Positions 3,642 to 31,056 of a stretch of 32,000 nucleotides of DNA are shown piece by piece. Each line of letters starts with the position of its first letter. Position 1 is the first letter of the stretch. The notes under the pieces were generated by a model, which was given only the letters and a program-made list of their open reading frames with translations, was not told the DNA's origin and did not search any database. Source of the DNA: an uncultured Colwellia sp. (GTDB lineage Bacteria > Pseudomonadota > Gammaproteobacteria > Enterobacterales > Alteromonadaceae). The stretch covers positions 6,748 through 38,747 of the forward strand of contig CAJXUT010000004.1 in assembly GCA_913061365.1 (NCBI GenBank), read 5' to 3'. The translations under genes were made by a program, and so were the position numbers.

Positions 3642-4052
3642 TTAAAGATAATACCGCCAGATGGCGAGATGTTGATGTTGTCCGTGATAAGTCAGTCCAG
3701 CTCGCTTGGCTATTTTGCGAACACCTTTTCTAACAGTTAAGAACTCAATGAATTGTGCATCTGTTTTTTTAGCTATAGCGTAAACTAAAGGCACAAAATG
3801 ACTAGTTACATCACCACTTGAACAGTAGGCGACGCTTATTTCGATATAGTTAATGTTGTTTTTTGCGCGAGGACGTAAGACAGTAAAACCTTCATCCGCT
3901 AGAAACAAAAAAGCCCACTCATTTGAGCAGGCTTTGTCGATGTTGGTATAAAGTTGGGGGTCGTCAGCTTTTAAGCCTATTTCATCAATAAAGGGCTTTA
4001 ACCTTTCTCGATGTTCTGACCACTTCACTTTTACCAAAGAGAAGTTTTCCAT
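3642..4052 (-). CDS. Hypothetical 136-aa protein directly downstream of the tail fibre gene; no Shine-Dalgarno, possibly near-leaderless
   Basis: ORF MENFSLVKVKWSEHRERLKPF... The 35 nt between the fibre stop and this ATG contain a promoter-like element (see feature 4062-4090) and no purine-rich RBS. Confidence 0.5.
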   Translation of the reverse strand: MENFSLVKVKWSEHRERLKPFIDEIGLKADDPQLYTNIDKACSNEWAFLFLADEGFTVLRPRAKNNINYIEISVAYCSSGDVTSHFVPLVYAIAKKTDAQFIEFLTVRKGVRKIAKRAGLTYHGQHQHLAIWRYYL

Positions 4053-4061
4053 AATGGGGAA

Positions 4062-4090
4062 ATAATACGCTTTTTTGGGGTGTTTGACTA
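4062..4090 (-). promoter_or_regulatory. Promoter-like element, second copy of the conserved late-promoter-like motif
   Basis: Minus strand: TAGTCA - 17 nt (AACACCCCAAAAAAGCG) - TATTAT, then TTCCCCATTATG. The ATG of the 136-aa gene lies 10 nt after the -10. Confidence 0.35.
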
Positions 4091-7000
4091 GGAAATAGTA
4101 CCGCCTTCTTTAAAGCAACTGACAGCTATTTTTTGCGCCTTAACTATTAAGTTGCCAACAGCGCCCCCTTGAAAGCTAGCCTCTGCGCTAGATACGCCTG
4201 CTTGAATTCTGTATACGTCATTTCCTGATGTTCTAGATGCAAGATAGTCAACAACAGGGCTGGTAAGTCCGCCAGCCAAAGAGCTATAAATTTCTACGTT
4301 ATTTTTTGTAACACGATACCAAGACCAGTTGTTGTTAGCGAATTCATCCTCATCACCATAGATATGGATACCGCCATCAACTTTAAACGTCCGGGCAAAC
4401 GGCATTCCGGAAACGGTAAACGTTGCAAGAGTATGCCACACTCCGCGTGTAATAAACCCATCCATTACAAGACTATTTTTTATTTTGACATCAGTAACAT
4501 CACCTTCCATTTCTTTGGCGTGAACAGTACCTAAGAACGTAGCATCTTTACCAAACAACGTATCGATATAAGCCTGATCAATTTGAGCACTTCCAATTGC
4601 ACCTGCTTCTATATATGTCGTTATATTCGTTGAAAGTATTTTATTTAACCCTGCGAACAGCCCTAGAGTTGGTTTTCCTGTGACTGAATCATAACTAACA
4701 CTATTCAGAGCTGCTAAAGCTCCAAGAGTCGGCTTACCTGTCAGGGCGTTATACCCTAATGAGTTTAATGCAGCTAAAGCGCCTAACGTAGGTGCTCCGG
4801 TTAATTTTGAATATGGAACAGCGCCAGTAGAGGACATAACCACATTGCCGCTTGAGTCCTTGATAGTAACTGACTCTAACACAGCGCTTTTAGCAACCAT
4901 ATTGCCGCTAGGATCTAGTGAGAAATTATGACTTCTAACACCAGTAGTTTTGTTGTAGTTAATCGATGGCGTATTAAGTTCAGAGCCAACGACTATACGA
5001 TTCGACAATAAATCATCGGTAACAAGTGATTGTATATGCGCATCATCAATTAACGCGCTTTTCATTACAGTTTTACCATCAACAACAGAAAAAACAGGAG
5101 TAAGAACAGTTGGGTCTTGCTCTGTTATGACGGCAAATTTAGCACCTTTGATAGCAAAGATAGGATCATCACCATCATTAAGTAAACCGAATGAAGCTGT
5201 GATTTCTGCAACGGTAGTTTTTACGCCCCACATTGCTGAAAAATCACCACTGTTATTAGCCACAGTTTCGCTTAGCGTTTGCAGTGATGCACCCACACTA
5301 TTTCCATTAGCGTCTTCAATTAACGCTTGTAATGTGCTGCTTGCGGTTGCTATTGCGGTGTCAGTATCGGTTTTAGTGCGATAATCTGTTACTAAAGCAG
5401 CGCCAATCGATGAGCCATCAGGATCTTCTATCAGAGACTGTAAAGCGTTTATTGCTGTGGATATCGCTGTATCTGTATCGGTTTCAGTGCGGTAATCAGA
5501 AAATAATGTAGCACCAACACTTGAACCATTCGGATTTTCAATTGCTGCTTTTAATATAGTAATAGCCGACGATATAGCAAGATCAGCCGCAGTTTTCGTA
5601 TAGTGATTAGTGTTTAAATCAGCAGCGACACTCGATCCGTTAGGGTCTTCGATTAATGTTTTTAAAGCAGTTATAGCGGCAGCGGTCGCTAAGTCAGAAT
5701 TTGCCTTAGTGTAGTGATTAGTCACCAAATCAGCCCCAACACTAGAGCCATTCGGATCTTCAATTAACGCTTTAAGCGCTGTGATTTCTGCCGCAATAGC
5801 AAGATCAGCGTTAACTTTAGTGTAATAGTTAAGCGCTAAGTCAGCACTAAGAGTACCAAGGGTGCCACCATCACCTTCAATAACGGATTGCAAATTAGTT
5901 ATAGCGGTTGCTATCGCCTCGTCTGCGTCTGTTTTTGTATAATGATTCGTAGCTAAGTCAGCCCCAACACTAGAGCCATTTGGATTTTCAATTATTGATT
6001 TAAGTGTTGTTATTGCTGCAGCTGTGGCTAAATCAGCACTAGCTTTTGTGTAATAATTAGTTGATAGATTAGCGCCAACACTATCTCCATTAGGATTTTC
6101 AATAGCCGACTTCATAGCAGTGATAGCGGTGGCAATAGCAAGATCCGCATTAACTTTCGTGTAATGGTTAGTTACAAGATCAGCAGCTACACTAGAGCCA
6201 TTAACATCTTCTATTGCGGATTTTAACGCAGTAATAGCGGCAGCAATGGCTAGATCTGCATTCGTTTTGGTGTAATAGGTATTAGCTAGGTTAGCACCAA
6301 CCGATGAACCGTCAGGGTCTTCTATAGCAGATTTCATAGCTGTAATAGCGGTGGCAATAGCTAAATCAGCACTTGTTTTAGTGTAGTGATTGGTAACAAG
6401 ATCAGCGCCAACGCTAGAGCCGTTTGGATTTTCTATAAAAGACTTTAATTCTGCTATAGCAGCAGAAATAGCAAGGTTTGCATTCGTCTTAGTGTAGTGA
6501 TTGTTTACTAATGTAGCACCTAAACTCGTTCCGTCAGGGTCTTCAATTATTGCTTTTAAAGCGTTTATCGCTATAGCTGTGGCTAATCCTGCCTCATAAG
6601 TTGTAGAATAATTATTAGCTAAGTCTGCGCCAATACTATCTCCTAAAGGGTTTTCTATATCGACTAATAGCTGTGGTATATCGAGCATCAACTGAGGAAC
6701 ATCAATCATAAGTTGCGGCACATCAATTAACAATTGCGGCATATCAAGCAATAGCTGATCAACATCATCGCTTATGGTTGGTATTCTGCCTATTTCCGTT
6801 GTTAAAAAATCGCCAAGGTGAGTACCTTCAATTCTTCCTTCAATTTCTGCGAGAATAGCATCGGCTGATAGGAGCGTTTCAACATATAAGCCATTAGCGT
6901 TATGTATAGGACCAACAACATCAGCTTGGTTAACAAAGCGAACCCAATAATAGTAAGCTGCGCCCATATTTACTGAATCGCTGTAGGTGTCAGATACTTC

Positions 7001-12726: not shown

Positions 12727-12756
12727 TAAAAAAACCAAGTGATAACTTGGTTTTAT
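12727..12756 (-). terminator. Intrinsic terminator after the 217-aa structural gene
   Basis: Minus strand: AACCAAGT TATC ACTTGGTT followed by TTTTTTAT. An A-run on the other side makes it potentially bidirectional. Confidence 0.75.
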
Positions 12757-12793: not shown

Positions 12794-13447
12794 CTATTCT
12801 TTAACTAACTCACCTGCCATCGAGCTATCTGTCTGTGTTTTTTCACCTAACTGTGTCTTAAATGCATTTTGGTGCATCATACTTTTGTTAGGGTTAGCAG
12901 CATATTCAGCATCTTTCATGTAGCAGCGATACATGATCCATTCAATGATTGCGTTAACATAAATATCATCAAGTGATATCAATTCATCTGCGTCATTATC
13001 AACCATCGAAATTGTCGGTGGTGCTTTCGAATAAACCACGGTAAGCACAGTAGACACCACTACACCAGGGTAAAGATAGAACGTCTTCGGGTTACGCTCG
13101 TCATAGATAAACAATTCTGCTTGAGTAGCGGAGTTGCCTGCATACCACTCAGGGTAGTTATCATCAAGTACAGCTCTATCGAATGGCCCTCTAATTGCTC
13201 GGCCACTTGCATTACGAGGAATATCAATTAAACGCAAAGCATCTGCAGGCAATGCCTGTTTAGTGCCAGCAATACACTGGTAATCATCTACATCACTTGT
13301 AAAAGCATCAGGTCGTCGAAGCACAATAGCTCGCTGGCCATCATTTAGATAATCTAGTAATTCTTGTTTTGGCCAACGAATAAAACCACTATCATTTAAT
13401 AAATTATTAACACGTAATAATATTTCGTTTGAGGTAATGAGTGACAT
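12794..13447 (-). CDS. Virion structural protein, head-tail connector/adaptor candidate
   Basis: 217-aa ORF, start overlapping the upstream stop. Position is between the head genes and the tail module; no diagnostic motif recognised. Confidence 0.35.
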   Translation of the reverse strand: MSLITSNEILLRVNNLLNDSGFIRWPKQELLDYLNDGQRAIVLRRPDAFTSDVDDYQCIAGTKQALPADALRLIDIPRNASGRAIRGPFDRAVLDDNYPEWYAGNSATQAELFIYDERNPKTFYLYPGVVVSTVLTVVYSKAPPTISMVDNDADELISLDDIYVNAIIEWIMYRCYMKDAEYAANPNKSMMHQNAFKTQLGEKTQTDSSMAGELVKE

Positions 13448-14944: not shown

Positions 14945-14977
14945 ATTTAAAATAAAAAGCCACAATAAAGTGGCTTT
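14945..14977 (-). terminator. Intrinsic terminator/attenuator after the major capsid gene
   Basis: Minus strand: AAAGCCAC TTTATT GTGGCTTT followed by TTATTTT. Confidence 0.7.
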
Positions 14978-23681: not shown

Positions 23682-24106
23682 ACTTTCACCAATTCAAAGT
23701 GTGGCAAATCTACAAAGGTTTCATCTGAAGTCCTTCCATCACCATCCCAATCACCACCCCAACGAAGGCGATGAGTAATTAATTTTTTATCTAAAAGCTC
23801 ATCCGCAATACGCATACAATAGCCAGCAAAAACAGCAAATGCTTTATGATCTTCCCAATCAGTATTTTTTAACTCGATAAAATATGGCCCTGCATCTGTA
23901 GCCATACTTGGAAATTGATTATGTTTTGATTCTGGATATCTAACTTGAGACAAGCCATTATCAAAAGCTTTATTTTGGTTAGCTTCACCTCGATGGCCGC
24001 AAAAAATTGAACACTCAACCGTTTTGATTGCGGTATTGAATACCAACTGCAAGTCAGGATGGCAAGTTGCTAACCGTTCTCTAGATGCTTTACCGAACTT
24101 AGGCAT
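23678..24106 (-). CDS. Endolysin, peptidase M15 family (D-Ala-D-Ala carboxypeptidase-like); start revised to ATG at 24106
   Basis: MPKFGKASRERLATCHPDLQLVF...GHRGEANQNKAF...SKHN...MATDAGPY...RWGGDWDGDG...DLPHFE matches the small phage M15 peptidase pattern (HPDL, R..Q, S.H..A.D, WGGDW, D..HFE). The track start at 24178 is a TTG without RBS and spans a terminator hairpin. Confidence 0.8.
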   Translation of the reverse strand: MPKFGKASRERLATCHPDLQLVFNTAIKTVECSIFCGHRGEANQNKAFDNGLSQVRYPESKHNQFPSMATDAGPYFIELKNTDWEDHKAFAVFAGYCMRIADELLDKKLITHRLRWGGDWDGDGRTSDETFVDLPHFELVKV

Positions 24107-24120
24107 AATTGAATTCCAGA

Positions 24121-24149
24121 AATAAAAAAGCCCCATCAAAAGATGAGGC
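24121..24149 (-). terminator. Intrinsic terminator 15 nt upstream of the endolysin ATG
   Basis: Minus strand: GCCTCATC TTTT GATGGGGC (8 bp with one G-U pair) followed by TTTTTTATTT. Confidence 0.65.
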
Positions 24150-24243: not shown

Positions 24244-24279
24244 CGCAAAAAAATCCGCATAGAGTTAACTAGCGGATTT
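24244..24279 (-). terminator. Intrinsic terminator (first of two upstream of the endolysin)
   Basis: Minus strand: AAATCCGC-loop-GCGGATTT followed by TTTTTTT. Confidence 0.7.
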
Positions 24280-24293
24280 CTTCAACATGGGAA

Positions 24294-24322
24294 ATATTAC
24301 TCTTGTTTTGGGGTGTTTGCAA
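24294..24322 (-). promoter_or_regulatory. Candidate late promoter (PR'-like)
   Basis: Minus strand: TTGCAA - 17 nt (ACACCCCAAAACAAGAG) - TAATAT. It is followed within about 15 nt by an intrinsic terminator and lies upstream of the lysis cassette. Confidence 0.45.
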
Positions 24323-24334
24323 GATGTTATAAAT

Positions 24335-24778
24335 TCATCTCGATACTCTTGCTTTATATTCTTTACTTATAATGCGATCTCTCGCTTGTTTTTTTTCAAA
24401 TTCCCAATCATCACCATCTGGGTACATCAATAAAACTTGCTCATCGGCTATTTCTTCGCACTTTTTCATTATTGCGATTAAATCAAGCTCGCTGATAGCG
24501 CTATAATCTATCGGCTTTGTGCTTAACTTCTGATGATTGTTGTTTTTAAATACACCTTCCGCCAACTTAGTAGCTGCATCTCGCAGTATGATTTCTAATT
24601 CCCAAGTAACAATGACTTTAGTAGCAGAAACAACATCTTTAGGTGGTATTTCATTGGCTTTAAGGCAGGGAATTACTTTGTGGTGACGAATCAAACCCAG
24701 TTCACCATTAAAAGAAGCTGCAACTGAGTATTCATTACCAAAGTCTTCAAACTGATATTCCCATTCAATTTCGCGCAT
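24335..24778 (-). CDS. Hypothetical 147-aa protein (accessory island)
   Basis: ORF with a good RBS (AAAGGTG). No recognisable motif. Followed by the late-promoter-like element and a terminator. Confidence 0.5.
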   Translation of the reverse strand: MREIEWEYQFEDFGNEYSVAASFNGELGLIRHHKVIPCLKANEIPPKDVVSATKVIVTWELEIILRDAATKLAEGVFKNNNHQKLSTKPIDYSAISELDLIAIMKKCEEIADEQVLLMYPDGDDWEFEKKQARDRIISKEYKARVSR

Positions 24779-24918
24779 TTGTTACACCTTTCTCGTTATT
24801 TATGCAATAAATCGTCTGCAAAGTTTGTTAACGTTAATTCTATCATTGTTTCTATTTGTTGCTTTCAGTTTTACGGAAGTAATCACTTGAACCAGTAAGC
24901 CTTTCGATAACAGCAGAG

Positions 24919-25542
24919 TTAATCATACAAATACTCATGCTTAATACTACCTGATATAAAAACACATTTACTCTCAAAGCTTTCACAGGTAAAGCTTTCG
25001 TTGTCTGTAAACCCTAACCCTTCCTGATTTCCAAAGCTGCTTTTATTACCAAGTTCAAGTTGCTCAGCTAAAAAACAAAGAACGCTAGGAGCGTAATTAG
25101 CTAAGCGATTATCATGAGCCATCCTAAATGATAATTCGATATTAAGCTTCCTGCCTGTTACGCCCTCCCATTTAATTGCATTAGAGTTGAGTATATTTAA
25201 TTGCATGTTTAGTTCGTTAACCGTCTTGGACTCGCTGCCTCTCAAACCAAGCATATGTTCCGGCACACCTATAGCCTCACATACCTTTTGTTCAGCACGT
25301 TCTTTCGCTATCGCTTCTGGTGGTTGGTTGATTTGGAGCTTTAGTGCTTCACTTTTTATTGCTTGATAGTCATCAACTAAACCACCATTATCGGACCAAG
25401 TTACATTACCAAAGGAAGAAATATTACACGCTCTATCTTCAAACAATAAAGTAGCGTTCTTTTCATCAAGGTAAGCTATTTCAATAAACTTATCTAGCTT
25501 TAATAATTCATTAAGTTTTTGTAACGCTATTCTGGTAAACAT
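24919..25542 (-). CDS. Hypothetical 207-aa protein (accessory island) preceded by TGCGCA array
   Basis: ORF with RBS AAGGTGA. No recognisable motif. Confidence 0.5.
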   Translation of the reverse strand: MFTRIALQKLNELLKLDKFIEIAYLDEKNATLLFEDRACNISSFGNVTWSDNGGLVDDYQAIKSEALKLQINQPPEAIAKERAEQKVCEAIGVPEHMLGLRGSESKTVNELNMQLNILNSNAIKWEGVTGRKLNIELSFRMAHDNRLANYAPSVLCFLAEQLELGNKSSFGNQEGLGFTDNESFTCESFESKCVFISGSIKHEYLYD

Positions 25543-25553
25543 AAATCACCTTT

Positions 25554-25611
25554 TGCGCAGCTGCGCATTTTATTTGTGCGCACGATTGCGCAGTGCGCAG
25601 AGATTTGCGCA
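25554..25611. promoter_or_regulatory. Array of six TGCGCA palindromes (operator-like cluster) directly upstream of the 207-aa gene RBS
   Basis: TGCGCA hexamers start at 25554, 25562, 25577, 25587, 25594 and 25606. The first two form the 14-bp palindrome TGCGCAGCTGCGCA; the third sits in GTGCGCAC. The region is otherwise AT-rich. Confidence 0.5.
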
Positions 25612-25754
25612 GGGTTGAATGCTGAGCAACGAACGAGCTTAAAATACCTTACCATATCCTTCTTTCTCTGCATAAACCGTTAAGTTATTGATTTGACGTG
25701 ATAACGTTACTGTAGAAAGCGTGGTTTTTCCAAGCGAAATATAGTGTTATGTTA

Positions 25755-26012
25755 CTAAACCAAGTCTAGCAAACTAAATACTACAAACCCTTCTTTCTGC
25801 TCATAGTTTGTTATAAATCCAATTCGCTTTGTTATTGTTCTACCAGAATAATGCGGAGCTTCGTCGCTATATTCATGCATAACAATAAAATCACCTTTTT
25901 TGTAACCCCTGTCATCAAATCTAATTTCAAACTTCTTAGTTCCAGCAAGCACAGGTTCAAAAAAACGCTTTAATATTCTAAGGTTGTGGCAATTAACTTT
26001 TTCCATGTTCAT
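25755..26012 (-). CDS. DUF3850 / ASCH-like (PUA-fold) domain protein
   Basis: HNLRILKRFFEPVLAGTKKFEIRFDDRGYKKGDFIVMHEY...YSGRTITKRIGFI...EGFVVFSL follows the DUF3850 pattern (H.LK....F..v..G.K.FEiR.nDR.y..GD.l.l.E......tGr.....I..i.....egyv). Confidence 0.7.
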   Translation of the reverse strand: MNMEKVNCHNLRILKRFFEPVLAGTKKFEIRFDDRGYKKGDFIVMHEYSDEAPHYSGRTITKRIGFITNYEQKEGFVVFSLLDLV

Positions 26013-26099
26013 GATTATTTCTCCAATTCAATATTTGTAACGGTAACATAACAAAATAAATCAAGCGGATTTCGTACCTCAACGCGCTTATTTAAACGG

Positions 26100-26348
26100 T
26101 TAGTTTGCTTTAATATCAGGTAGTGTTTCTATCCACTCAAAAACGTCTTGAGAATTATCTAATTCCATAGTAGTTTCAAAGTTTACGTTTTTATCTGCTT
26201 CCCATACTCTATTTTCTAGAGCTTCGCTAAATGTAAATACATAACCGTTAGCGTAACCTTCTGGGACAGGACAACGTCTCTCATACTTAGCACTAATTGG
26301 AGTTATCCCTTTATCTCCTAGCTTTTTAACCATTTTTGCAATAGCCAT
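26100..26348 (-). CDS. Hypothetical 82-aa protein (accessory island)
   Basis: ORF only; acidic C-terminus; no motif recognised. Confidence 0.45.
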   Translation of the reverse strand: MAIAKMVKKLGDKGITPISAKYERRCPVPEGYANGYVFTFSEALENRVWEADKNVNFETTMELDNSQDVFEWIETLPDIKAN

Positions 26349-26360
26349 CGTAATACCCCT

Positions 26361-26450
26361 TTAAATTAAATTTACTATAGCTACGATAACGACAGTTACC
26401 ATACCACCAGTAGCGTACCCAACCCAAAAACTGTAACTTTCTACTTTCAT
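26361..26450 (-). CDS. Possible 29-aa hydrophobic peptide (below the ORF-track size cut-off)
   Basis: Hand translation gives MKVESYSFWVGYATGGMVTVVIVAIVNLI then TAA at 26361-26363. An in-frame ATG at 26459 would add MGL. It lies 12 nt upstream of the next gene; the RBS is weak. Confidence 0.3.
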   Translation of the reverse strand: MKVESYSFWVGYATGGMVTVVIVAIVNLI

Positions 26451-26500
26451 TAATCCCATCTTCTATCTCGCTTATATATTTGTGTAATCAGCAAAACTAA

Positions 26501-26534
26501 CAACAAAATAAACAGGGACAACTTACAGTTGCCC
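26501..26534 (-). terminator. Probable intrinsic terminator inside the accessory island
   Basis: Minus strand: GGGCAACT GTA AGTTG(T)CCC (8 bp with one bulge) followed by TGTTTATTTTGTTGTT. Confidence 0.45.
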
Positions 26535-26567
26535 GTTATTTTATAAGGTTATTCAACCTGAATAGGT

Positions 26568-26777
26568 TTAAAAATCTTTTTCGAATTTTTTAACTGTTAC
26601 TTCTTTAACTTCAGTTAATGGTGAGATTTTTTCCATGACAAGCGCAACAGCAAGATTAGTGTTAGGTGCTTCATATTCATTTACCAAATAATCCGTATTA
26701 ATGGATTTTTTATTTTTAAGTGTTGTTACGGTTACCTTGAAGAAATCTATTTTGTTTCCTCTTTTAAGTTCAAGCAT
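26568..26777 (-). CDS. Hypothetical 69-aa protein (accessory island)
   Basis: ORF overlapping the upstream gene by 8 nt and followed by a hairpin plus T-rich tail. Confidence 0.45.
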   Translation of the reverse strand: MLELKRGNKIDFFKVTVTTLKNKKSINTDYLVNEYEAPNTNLAVALVMEKISPLTEVKEVTVKKFEKDF

Positions 26778-26982
26778 GATGCACCTCCAGTTTACTATTT
26801 ACTTCTTTTAGCCATTCATACCATTTTTCAGGAATTGGTTTACCTGCATTCATGTAACGTTCAATTGCAGCTTCTATGGCCGCCTTTCTGTTGCATAGCC
26901 ACATTTCATCATCGATTAACCCTAACAGTGGTTTAGTCATATCAATACATGCCATGCTGATTGAATTTATTTGTAATTTCAC
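26770..26982 (-). CDS. Hypothetical small protein (57-70 aa; start uncertain)
   Basis: The track start at 26982 is a GTG inside the upstream gene. In-frame ATGs occur at 26955 and at 26940 (1 nt after the upstream stop). No clear RBS for any of them. Confidence 0.4.
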   Translation of the reverse strand: MKLQINSISMACIDMTKPLLGLIDDEMWLCNRKAAIEAAIERYMNAGKPIPEKWYEWLKEVNSKLEVHHA

Positions 26983-27376
26983 TTTGTATTTGAAACTTCA
27001 TGCTTTCAAAAGGCAAATGAAACATACTAACAATACCCTTCATTACAGCTTCTTCTGCGCTTGTCTCGATGAATGACTTAAGTTCTTTAGCCATTAGCTC
27101 TTGGTTATCATCAATCCAGCCTCGAATAGCATTGTCCATGCGCTCGGCTAAGAGTTCTTTAACTAATTTTTTAAATACTGAATCTTCATATATTGTTTTT
27201 GAATTAAATCCGGTACCAGTTTCTTTTCGCTGGTCTTCGAAGAAACAATCCTCAGTTGCTTTTTCAATCATAGCTACCAAAGCTTCATCAGGGATTAAAT
27301 CACCGATATCTTTAGTTAGTCGTTCTTTTATTTTTTCTTCGAATGATTGTGTTGCTGTTAAATTTGTGTTGCTCAT
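26942..27376 (-). CDS. Hypothetical 144-aa acidic protein (accessory island)
   Basis: ORF with ATGA overlap to the Q-like gene, suggesting co-translation with it. Confidence 0.5.
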   Translation of the reverse strand: MSNTNLTATQSFEEKIKERLTKDIGDLIPDEALVAMIEKATEDCFFEDQRKETGTGFNSKTIYEDSVFKKLVKELLAERMDNAIRGWIDDNQELMAKELKSFIETSAEEAVMKGIVSMFHLPFESMKFQIQSEITNKFNQHGMY

Positions 27377-29483: not shown

Positions 29484-30145
29484 TAGGCTGCATCCTCATC
29501 TTTCAGGTTAGGAATTGAGGTTTTAGGGTGATGAGATATCGCCAAAGGCTCATGATTTATTAATTTGATATTGTCAGAGCCGTACTTATAAACTTTTCGA
29601 CACTCAGTGATATCACCAATAGTTACAGGTGGGGCAATCGCATGCATGAAACCTTGAGCAAGATTGTTTGATTCATAGTAACCAATAAGTTTGCGAGGAA
29701 ACTCTTTAACACCATGCTTGCTATGGCTGTTGTAACGTTTCTCAAATTCTCTCGCTTTAAATGGCAATTCATCTTCTTCAACAGTGCATAGCTTAGACCA
29801 CCCCCCCATATCTGCTATTGATGCATGAATAAAGCGATCGTCAAAACAAACTGTTGTCCCTCCACCAACGGAGCCGATAGCTTTTTGAACTTTAGCCCAA
29901 GCTAACATTGCTCGCGTTTCTCTGCTTCCTTCGATGTTACGAATAATATTTGCAGGCTTTGGAGCAAATTGGCCAACATCAGGATCAACAATGTGAGCAC
30001 CAAAAGCCATTTCAACAATGTGAAATTCATATTTTTCTAATGCATTCCACCAAATGTTAATCACAAGTTTGCTTGTTCGCTGCCCGTAAACCTCTAATGC
30101 GCCCGTCAGTAATTCGCTAAAAGCTTTTAGTTCGTTAGTATTCAT
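29483..30145 (-). CDS. Replication accessory protein, helicase-loader candidate with G39P-like N-terminal region
   Basis: The N-terminus (LEVYGQRTSKLVINIWWNALEKYEFHIVEMAFGAHIV....QFAPKPANIIRNI) resembles the G39P loader pattern (Y........W...L..Y.....A.......F.P..A.I). ATGA overlap with the O-like gene. No Walker motif. Confidence 0.4.
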   Translation of the reverse strand: MNTNELKAFSELLTGALEVYGQRTSKLVINIWWNALEKYEFHIVEMAFGAHIVDPDVGQFAPKPANIIRNIEGSRETRAMLAWAKVQKAIGSVGGGTTVCFDDRFIHASIADMGGWSKLCTVEEDELPFKAREFEKRYNSHSKHGVKEFPRKLIGYYESNNLAQGFMHAIAPPVTIGDITECRKVYKYGSDNIKLINHEPLAISHHPKTSIPNLKDEDAA

Positions 30146-31056
30146 GGGTTCACCTCGATTTCAGGTTGTTTGCTAGCAAGCCATTCGTCCATGGCTTGTT
30201 GGTTATGATCATTAACGCTTTGATGGCTTCTGTTAAATTGGGTGGCTGGCTGCGGCAGCGGAGTTAGCCATTTTTTATCACGAATGAATTTTGTAATACC
30301 AAAAACAAATTGCCCATTAGCCTCTGTTTTCCAATCAGGATTCGTATTTGCAGCTGAAGTTAACCAATCAAGTGCGGATTGTGCATCAAGATCAGTGAGC
30401 TTTTCAGATTTCCAGACTTTCCATGCTTGTGCGTCAGTTCCACCTTTTCGGTGAGCTGGGTATAATTTGAAAAAAGCCTTGAACTGTTTAGGTTTTTTAA
30501 TACGAGAAGATACTGGAGTTTTAGGTATGTCTTTTGTAATAGTGTCTTTTGTAATAGTGTCTTTCTTTTGTATGGGTCTAGTTTTACTTGTTTTTAAGTC
30601 TACTTGGATAGGTGCAAGGGTCTGATTAGACTTATTCAAGGGTCTAGATATACTTACTGCACTCTTCTTGTTTTGGGTCTGTTTAGACTTAAAAACCCAG
30701 TCTGAGACAATAGGGTTTATGCCCACTTTTTTCCCATCAACAATAATTATTTTTCTTTGTACTAACCTTTTTTTTACCTTGCTAATGTTATCAACACTAA
30801 TGCCGGTTAACTCTGATATTTGCTCGTAGCAAACCCAATCAAACATCTTGTTCCAACCAAATGTTTTAAACATAACAGTGTGAACAATCCGCCCTTCACT
30901 ATCGTTTAAATGAACTTTACATAACGCTAGACCAATTTCATTAGCTACCCGATAATAGCCGTTATCGATGTCTGCTTTCACGTACTCACGCCCCTGAGCT
31001 TGCTTTTGTTCTATTTCCCTTTCAGGAAAGTTGATTATTTCTGCTGAATTTGTCAT
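30142..31056 (-). CDS. Replication initiator, lambda O-like N-terminal domain, with origin iterons inside the coding sequence
   Basis: GYYRVANEIGLALCKVHLNDSEGRIVHTVMFKTFGWNKMFDWVCYEQISELTGISVDNISKVKKRLVQRKII fits the phage replication protein O N-terminal winged-helix pattern. Iterons occupy the central linker. GAGG RBS. Confidence 0.8.
   Translation of the reverse strand: MTNSAEIINFPEREIEQKQAQGREYVKADIDNGYYRVANEIGLALCKVHLNDSEGRIVHTVMFKTFGWNKMFDWVCYEQISELTGISVDNISKVKKRLVQRKIIIVDGKKVGINPIVSDWVFKSKQTQNKKSAVSISRPLNKSNQTLAPIQVDLKTSKTRPIQKKDTITKDTITKDIPKTPVSSRIKKPKQFKAFFKLYPAHRKGGTDAQAWKVWKSEKLTDLDAQSALDWLTSAANTNPDWKTEANGQFVFGITKFIRDKKWLTPLPQPATQFNRSHQSVNDHNQQAMDEWLASKQPEIEVNP
30528..30572. repeat. 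AT-rich 15-bp tandem repeat (2 full copies plus a degenerate third) flanking the iterons
   Basis: TGTCTTTTGTAATAG at 30528-30542 and 30543-30557, then TGTCTTTCTTTTGTA. It encodes KDTITKDTITKD in the O-like protein. Confidence 0.8.
30574..30690. repeat. Origin-of-replication iterons (4 copies) inside the O-like gene
   Basis: GGGTCTAGTTTTACTT (30574), GGGTCTGATTAGACTT (30618), GGGTCTAGATATACTT (30640), GGGTCTGTTTAGACTT (30675). Spacings are 44, 22 and 35 bp, roughly helical multiples. Confidence 0.65.

Follow-up and report, generated by a model that had tools for sequence, protein, structure and literature searches.

The locus described here raises the question of why a short promoter-like element should occur twice in one prophage, at sites 20 kb apart, and of what reads it. 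The window, meaning the whole stretch of DNA analysed (32,000 nucleotides from an uncultured Colwellia sp., contig CAJXUT010000004.1), is a lambdoid-type prophage of marine Gammaproteobacteria. Its genes lie on the minus strand throughout. The large terminase is 75-82% identical to prophage genes of Shewanella, Pseudoalteromonas, Psychromonas, Parashewanella and Psychrosphaera, and the GenBank phages contain no near-identical DNA for 12 kb of the window. In the order of transcription, a lambda-O-like replication gene, NinB and an HNH endonuclease lead to the gene of a Q-like protein. This is followed by approximately 3 kb of small cargo genes and then by the first copy of the element, site A. 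The endolysin, holin, terminase, portal, head and tail genes come next, ending in a tail-tip gene of 1099 aa. Site B, the second copy, follows the tail-tip gene and is itself followed by a 136-aa gene and by more virion genes, which continue past the end of the window. The first-pass annotation placed one copy ahead of the lysis, packaging and structural genes and the other ahead of a block of genes beyond the fibre gene. This description is correct, as the block after site B consists of the 136-aa gene and the distal virion structural genes, all on the same strand as the genes after site A. The coordinates of the features are collected in Table 1.

Three other regions of the window carry features of their own. 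The lambda-O-like replication initiator gene (30142-31056) contains 2.5 perfect copies of the 15-nt sequence TGTCTTTTGTAATAG at 30528-30564, which are candidate origin iterons. The origin of lambda is likewise within its O gene. The stretch from the Q-like gene to the late promoter (24335-27376) is a variable cargo slot, measuring 686-4755 nt among the relatives, and in the window it holds six small genes, one of which encodes a DUF3850/ASCH-like protein (25755-26012). The tail-tip or J-like gene contains approximately ten tandem copies of a 111-nt (37-aa) unit at 5526-6641, with a mutual identity of 61-70%.

Table 1. Features of the two candidate late cassettes and of the associated genes, in window coordinates.
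Feature	Position	Strand	Remarks
Q-like gene, 188 aa	27373..27939	minus	distant homologue of the Q-lambda antiterminator
Site A late promoter	24284..24322	minus	candidate cassette; putative start near 24288-24287
Site A -35, TTGCAA	24322-24317	minus	
Site A C-rich spacer core, CAAACACCCCAAAA	24319-24306	minus	candidate Q-binding element
Site A -10, TAATAT	24299-24294	minus	
Site A -10-like hexamer, CATGTT	24289-24284	minus	candidate sigma-dependent pause element
Site A terminator 1, GAAGAAAUCCGCUAG-loop-CUAUGCGGAUUUUUUU	24244..24283	minus	ends ~45 nt past the putative start
Site A terminator 2, GCCUCAUC-UUUU-GAUGGGGC and U run	24120..24149	minus	just 5' of the probable endolysin ATG at 24106
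Tail-tip / J-like gene, 1099 aa	4088..7387	minus	stop codon overlaps the site B -35-like hexamer
Site B promoter	4051..4090	minus	candidate cassette; putative start near 4055
Site B -35-like hexamer, TAGTCA	4090-4085	minus	contains the tail-tip gene stop codon
Site B core, CAAACACCCCAAAA	4086-4073	minus	
Site B -10, TATTAT	4067-4062	minus	
Site B -10-like hexamer, CATTAT	4056-4051	minus	
136-aa gene, phrog_610	3642..4052	minus	
Embedded intrinsic-terminator hairpin and T run	3900..3935	minus	codons 39-52 of the 136-aa gene

The two copies of the element read TTGCAA ACACCCCAAAACAAGAG TAATAT TTCCCATG (site A, minus strand 24322-24286) and TAGTCA AACACCCCAAAAAAGCG TATTAT TTCCCCATTATG (site B, minus strand 4090-4050). 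Both sequences, quoted by the first-pass annotation, were found at these coordinates, and the shared run of 14 nt, CAAACACCCCAAAA, occurs exactly twice in the window, at the two cores of Table 1, in agreement with the claim that no further exact copy exists. A match with two mismatches at 406-419 was considered as a third copy and rejected, lying as it does inside a coding ORF. Hexamers of the sigma-70 type with a 17-nt spacer are present at both sites and are conserved in relatives. The -10 of site A had been credited with five matches to TATAAT out of six; the recount gives four, so that site A agrees with the promoter consensus at 8/12 positions (site B at 9/12) and is absent from the list of a consensus promoter scan. 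The agreement between the sites was also put slightly too high, at about 31 of 34 aligned positions, as a gapped alignment contains 30 identities in 34 columns with two mismatches and two single-base gaps. These gaps cancel, and the distance from the C-tract to the CAT-hexamer at the start point is exactly 27 nt in both copies. The similarity had been thought to stop about 8 nt past the -10, but a weaker similarity (the hexamer, a G and a purine run) extends for approximately 15 nt more. The flanks of A and B are unrelated, and the pair is therefore not part of a longer duplicated segment or the end of a mobile element, a possibility that had been raised at the outset.

By itself, the shared 14-mer is within chance expectation. 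There are 24 maximal direct repeats of at least 14 nt in the window, Markov shuffles give approximately 5.8 such pairs, and the A-B pair is not among the top ungapped repeats. As the 14-mer is statistically unremarkable, the case rests on its position and on the comparison with related phages. A chance resemblance of AT-rich intergenic stretches would draw on the many exact repeats of 14-16 nt in the window, and also on the outcome of a search of IMG/VR with the strict pattern CAAACACCCCAAAA-N5-6-TAWTAT (in which 19 bases are fixed and one position, W, allows two). Of the three matches to this pattern, the one at 356-381 of the contig designated L002 fell by chance within an ORF with a Walker A motif in an unrelated phage, from which it follows that the pattern can give chance matches at the size of this database. 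The comparative data contradict such an origin, which is extremely improbable, as several lineages keep both sites at orthologous positions and with variants that match. The A/B pair is confirmed as real by this conservation in other phages. A strict pattern made for the lineage designated group 2 found one copy per IMG/VR contig; the B sites, missed because their spacer differs, were recovered through the neighbouring proteins.

The gene that had been called Q-like encodes a genuine distant homologue of Q-lambda. Comparison of a 56-sequence profile with Q-lambda by hhalign (with a Q-lambda sequence identical to 7ubm_Q) gave a probability of 97.2% and an E-value of 3.5e-11 over 150 columns, and 7ubm_Q was the top match in an hmmsearch of PDB sequences (E 8.7e-9). 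The best four Foldseek matches in the PDB are all structures of Q-lambda (E 5e-3 to 6e-2, probability 0.99-1.0, TM 0.42-0.47), and from the fifth match onward E is above 1.6. With these TM values and a pLDDT of 75, the structural match of the model to Q-lambda is modest. At E <= 0.01, neither the window protein nor ten distant relatives match the Pfam Q families, including PF03589. Searches of Pfam, NCBIfam and PHROGs yielded no usable name, with only weak matches to phrog_127 and to a DnaJ zinc motif, and the close homologues are all unnamed. As the profile and the fold both tie the protein to Q-lambda and the curated Pfam Q models do not recognise it, it is assigned to a new, distant branch of the Q-lambda lineage. 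The family comprises 806 clusters at 50% identity (full scan, E <= 1e-3).

The AlphaFold model of the protein (pLDDT 75.5) contains a disordered N-terminus, a helical body, a Cys4 zinc ribbon and C-terminal helices, a domain order that agrees with the one given for Q-lambda (PMC9388147). The zinc ribbon consists of two CxxCxGxG motifs (C107, C110, C127 and C130), which are invariant in the homologues. In the first hhalign alignment, FCGHDE of the window protein stands opposite FCGKHE of Q-lambda, in the segment with C53 and H56. These two are among the residues of Q-lambda required for antitermination and not for DNA binding (PMC9388147). A residue-level rule linking the zinc ribbon or the C-terminal residues to the variants of the DNA core was sought and none emerged, each Q clade having its own core. 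A Q-lambda-like gene is also found in Vibrio phage douglas 12A4 (L097), as VPAG_00015; it is annotated as hypothetical and its product is 33% identical to the window protein.

A homologue of site A lies downstream of the Q-like gene in all 31 related loci that have the gene and readable sequence beyond it (five bacterial genomes and 26 IMG/VR contigs, with Q proteins 47-76% identical to that of the window). It is found 686-4755 nt from the Q stop codon in these 31 loci, with the lysis and terminase genes further downstream. The module in the relatives is composed of TTGCAA, AC-NN-CCC-AA, a variable stretch, the -10, TTyC, CATGTT, GAAGAAATCCGC, a variable loop and GCGGATTTTTTTT, and the sequence on its flanks is unrelated between phages. 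The first terminator (in the window, dG -17.2 kcal/mol and z -4.9) has a nearly invariant stem and a variable loop. It had been stated that the conserved part of the element is the spacer and the start region. Both are indeed conserved, but conservation is not confined to them, as the -35 and the terminator stem of site A are also maintained.

Two further loci have a promoter comparable to site A. The Q gene of douglas 12A4 is followed directly by TTGACT-18-TATGAT, TTTTC, TACATT and a terminator (L097, 11109-11211), and then by the lysis and terminase genes; the promoter, the TACATT hexamer and the terminator are all unannotated in the record. In Shewanella surugensis (L005, 1-7800) there is a site-A-like promoter, TTGCAAACACCCCA...CATTAT...TACATT, with a terminator. 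The 7.8 kb upstream of it contain large ORFs of 397, 1020 and 729 aa and no Q-like gene, an observation that weighs against the Q reading; the gene may be further away or of another type. Two other interpretations of site A were discarded. A short ORF (MLKKSAS) was rejected because its ATG is missing in L004, L021 and L022. A promoter for an ECF or phage sigma factor, suggested by the AAC motif, was rejected as well: the downstream hexamer, rich in A and T, is of the sigma-70 kind, and no gene for a sigma factor turned up.

Site B is conserved in four lineages at the junction of the tail-tip and 136-aa genes. In the IMG/VR relatives having the 136-aa gene, these two genes and the virion genes that follow form a syntenic block. 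The 136-aa homologues align from M1-E2 throughout, both residues being invariant. The ATG is situated 9 nt past the -10 of site B, and a Shine-Dalgarno sequence was looked for ahead of the gene and is absent; a transcript from site B would thus have a leader of approximately 2-3 nt and be near-leaderless.

The hairpin embedded in the 136-aa gene, AAAGCCTGCTC-AAAT-GAGTGGGCTTTTTTGTTT, would lie at about +120 to +155 from the start at site B. Its nucleotides are almost invariant across lineages whose 136-aa proteins are only 45-63% identical. The amino-acid changes that do occur within it, W to Q (L076) and W to R (L091), both turn G-U pairs into Watson-Crick pairs. Where invariant residues have degenerate codons, the third position is invariant in 8/10 cases inside the hairpin vs 2/27 outside, and the two that vary inside are both in the loop. 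The freezing of synonymous sites indicates selection on the nucleic acid at this position. With its embedded terminator under selection, site B possesses the full set of promoter, hexamer and terminator.

The -35 of site B is weak in every lineage (TAGTCA, TGGATA), and this fits an activator-dependent promoter equally well. It is conceivable that both sites are late promoters activated at initiation, where a phage factor bound to the C-rich element at about -30 recruits or stabilises the polymerase, as at the MotA box of T4 middle promoters. The factor would be the Q-like protein or another, and the terminators ordinary operon punctuation. The centre of the conserved element, at about -25 to -30, is where such a factor would sit, and at site A, too, the promoter agrees with the consensus at only 8/12 positions. 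On the other hand, the -35 of site A, TTGCAA, is well conserved, and the sole candidate regulator found is a homologue of an antiterminator. Terminators stand directly past both promoters, ahead of the first completed gene product, and a hairpin under nucleotide-level selection within a coding sequence is left unexplained. Activation of initiation is therefore judged unlikely.

Beyond the 14-mer, sites A and B share a fixed geometry. At A and at B, in every lineage indexed (four), AC-NN-CCC begins exactly 27 nt 5' of the start-point hexamer. The -10 is shifted by 1 nt between A and B, and the constancy of the 27 nt in spite of this explains the two compensating gaps of the alignment. The start-point hexamer is CATGTT, CATCTT, CATATT or TATGTT in 24 variants of A, and CATTAT, CACTAT, CACAAT or CATAAT in 17 variants of B; the A-type sites of L004, L005 and douglas have TACATT. 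It can be written as NANNNT, with A2 and T6 invariant in 24/24 A and 17/17 B variants at 27 nt from the core. These two positions are the bases most important for recognition by sigma region 2. The hexamer is accordingly a -10-like candidate for a sigma-dependent pause element in the initial transcribed region.

The cores of the two sites also tend to vary together. Sites A and B both have ACACCCCAAAA in the window (ACACCCC), ACCTCCCG in L021 and L077, and ACCCCCCAA in group 2 (ACCCCCC), whereas the match is poorer between TCCCCCCCAAAAAA at site A and ACCCGACAAAAAAA at site B in L023 and L076. In 3/4 lineages, a lineage-specific variant of the C-tract is thus common to the lineage's own A and B. 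Pairing each A with its own B gives the highest identity of the 24 permutations, with a sum of 51 vs 50 for the next-best, although for L023/L076 the own pair is not the best. This co-variation is marginally significant and suggestive only. It has a bearing on the proposal that duplication or gene conversion gave rise to two constitutive promoters, in which the spacer reflects descent or a preference of the polymerase and has no specific reader. Marginal co-variation, and the abundance of short shared 14-mers in the window, are what this proposal can call upon. It does not account for an element that is matched over 20 kb in 3/4 lineages when the flanks and most of the remaining spacer have diverged, nor for a hexamer kept at 27 nt when the position of the -10 differs by 1 nt. 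Moreover, with terminators right behind it, a constitutive promoter would give no late product. Such an origin is considered quite improbable.

The conserved segment might instead act as RNA, either an antitermination RNA like HK022 put or a small RNA from site A, or it might mark a recombination boundary at a junction of modules. The homology between phages ends exactly at the upstream edge of the element, as a boundary would, and in Stx phages a short transcript from pR', ended by a terminator, can have a function as a small RNA (PMC7547250). The C-tract is positioned 5' of the putative start points, however, and would not be transcribed from these promoters. No RNA family of Rfam matches anywhere in the window. 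An RNA of the HK022 put type was rejected on this ground, along with the position of the part shared by A and B, mostly 5' of the putative start, and the lack of a common RNA structure downstream of the two sites. A small RNA from site A would be compatible with a Q cassette there and no replacement for it. Taken as the explanation of the element, an RNA or a boundary has very little probability.

The reading favoured here is that A and B are probably two late regulatory cassettes of the lambda pR' type, read by the phage's own Q-lambda-like protein. The suggestion of a Q-loading site is supported to this extent, each of its predictions that could be examined in the sequence having been borne out. 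This support is at the level of sequence: the protein is homologous to Q-lambda, the anatomy of the sites is conserved and their spacing fixed, terminators are present, and the embedded hairpin is under selection. The start points, the binding of the C-tract by Q, the pause through sigma, antitermination and the translation of a leaderless mRNA are inferred from these.

The proposed mechanism is as follows. Each cassette would comprise a sigma-70-type promoter, a C-rich AAAC-NN-CCC-AA in the spacer as the candidate Q-binding element, the NANNNT hexamer and at least one intrinsic terminator. Both promoters would be fired by the host sigma-70 polymerase. At the start point, sigma would rebind to NANNNT and hold the polymerase in a promoter-proximal pause. 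In the absence of Q, transcription from site A would yield an RNA of approximately 45 nt, with a back-up terminator 100 nt further on, and transcription from site B a truncated RNA of approximately 150 nt ending inside the first gene. When present, the Q-like protein would occupy the C-rich spacer element behind the polymerase and load onto the paused complex. The modified polymerase would be terminator-resistant and ignore the hairpins, and the lysis, packaging and virion genes would be transcribed from A and the distal virion genes from B, beginning with the near-leaderless 136-aa gene. Site B, 20 kb from A, may thereby renew Q-modified transcription across the distal virion genes. It may also provide a near-leaderless mRNA from which the 136-aa gene, otherwise devoid of a ribosome-binding site, would be translated. 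The embedded terminator would keep the output of B dependent on Q and stop unmodified polymerase arriving from upstream.

Symmetric hairpins with A and T runs also occur inside the late operon, just past the major head gene (14956-14977) and past the structural gene at 12794-13447 (12731-12754), and they score as terminators on both strands. Strong terminators between A and B fit a terminator-resistant late polymerase.

A broader proposal, for which the arguments appear evenly balanced, is that a so far unannotated part of the Q-lambda superfamily, comprising ~800 clusters at 50% identity outside the Pfam Q models, reads a C-rich spacer and loads twice per late operon. The second cassette would be built into a gene junction, with its -35 over a stop codon, a near-leaderless gene and an embedded terminator, and it would insulate and re-prime the distal virion genes. 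Q antitermination is a textbook switch, described for a few coliphage types of Q, and each phage described in the literature searched has a single loading site. That literature yielded no report of another Q-dependent late promoter or Q-loading site in the same phage, which is not proof of absence.

If the proposal is true, the Q-lambda fold reaches into a large unannotated family in phages of marine Gammaproteobacteria, and many "hypothetical" genes gain a function. The lineage-matched pairs of elements (ACACCCC, ACCTCCCG and ACCCCCC), together with the cognate Q proteins, would be suited to a test of Q-DNA recognition. It would also mean that one late operon can contain a Q-loading cassette more than once, that such a cassette can overlap coding sequence, and that a terminator within a gene can be kept at the cost of amino-acid identity. 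This would bear on the question of how expression at the far end of long late operons is kept high while still depending on Q.

Among known systems, lambda pR'/qut has the same order of Q gene, promoter, pause-type hexamer, terminator and lysis/structural genes, the components by which a Q-dependent cassette has been defined (PMC9388147). As in lambda, the candidate binding element is between the -35 and the -10, a -10-like hexamer is at the start point, and the Q-like protein is homologous to lambda Q, with the same layout of body, zinc ribbon and body. The systems differ in that the window protein falls outside PF03589 and that the candidate binding element is C-rich. Variable cargo of 0.7-4.8 kb separates Q from its promoter here, whereas in lambda the promoter is directly after Q, and a second cassette is present 20 kb downstream inside the late operon. 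The first terminator of site A is only ~45 nt from the putative start; in lambda this distance from the pR' start is roughly 190 nt. The hexamer begins 10-11 nt past the start of the -10, compared with 13 nt at lambda pR'; this offset, like the distance of up to 4.8 kb between Q and the promoter, weighs against the Q reading. It has been reported that the hexamer of lambda pR', AACGAT at +1 to +6, causes the +16 pause required by Q (PMC4005639).

The AlpA/PalpB system of Pseudomonas aeruginosa also has a binding element between the -35 and the -10 and an intrinsic terminator downstream (PMC9371919). It requires a sequence resembling a -10 and a pause that depends on sigma, and the AlpA structures were solved by fitting onto models of the 21Q complex (PMC9371919). 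AlpA is unlike the present system in controlling a chromosomal lysis operon and not a phage late operon, and the Foldseek match of the Q-like model to the AlpA complex chain 7xyb_G has an E-value of only 4.7.

The 6S RNA of lambda is a short terminated pR' transcript. Site A should likewise make a terminated RNA constitutively in the absence of Q, in the manner described for StxS of Stx phages (PMC7547250). Unlike 6S and StxS, the RNA predicted for site A is only ~45 nt long and almost entirely terminator hairpin, with no function indicated.

Phage morons resemble site B in that a gene block inside the late operon has its own promoter. The terminator at site B, however, is inside the first gene (codons 39-52) and not behind the unit. 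Every relative with the 136-aa gene has it in synteny with virion genes, and the promoter of the gene copies the late promoter of the phage. The site B block is on these grounds not regarded as a moron, which would be an insert of variable presence with a terminator behind its gene. The system proposed here thus departs from the described Q systems in its C-rich candidate element, in a terminator within ~45 nt of the putative start and in the kilobases of cargo between Q and its promoter. Above all, it departs from them in the conserved second cassette within the late operon, with its near-leaderless gene and coding-embedded terminator.
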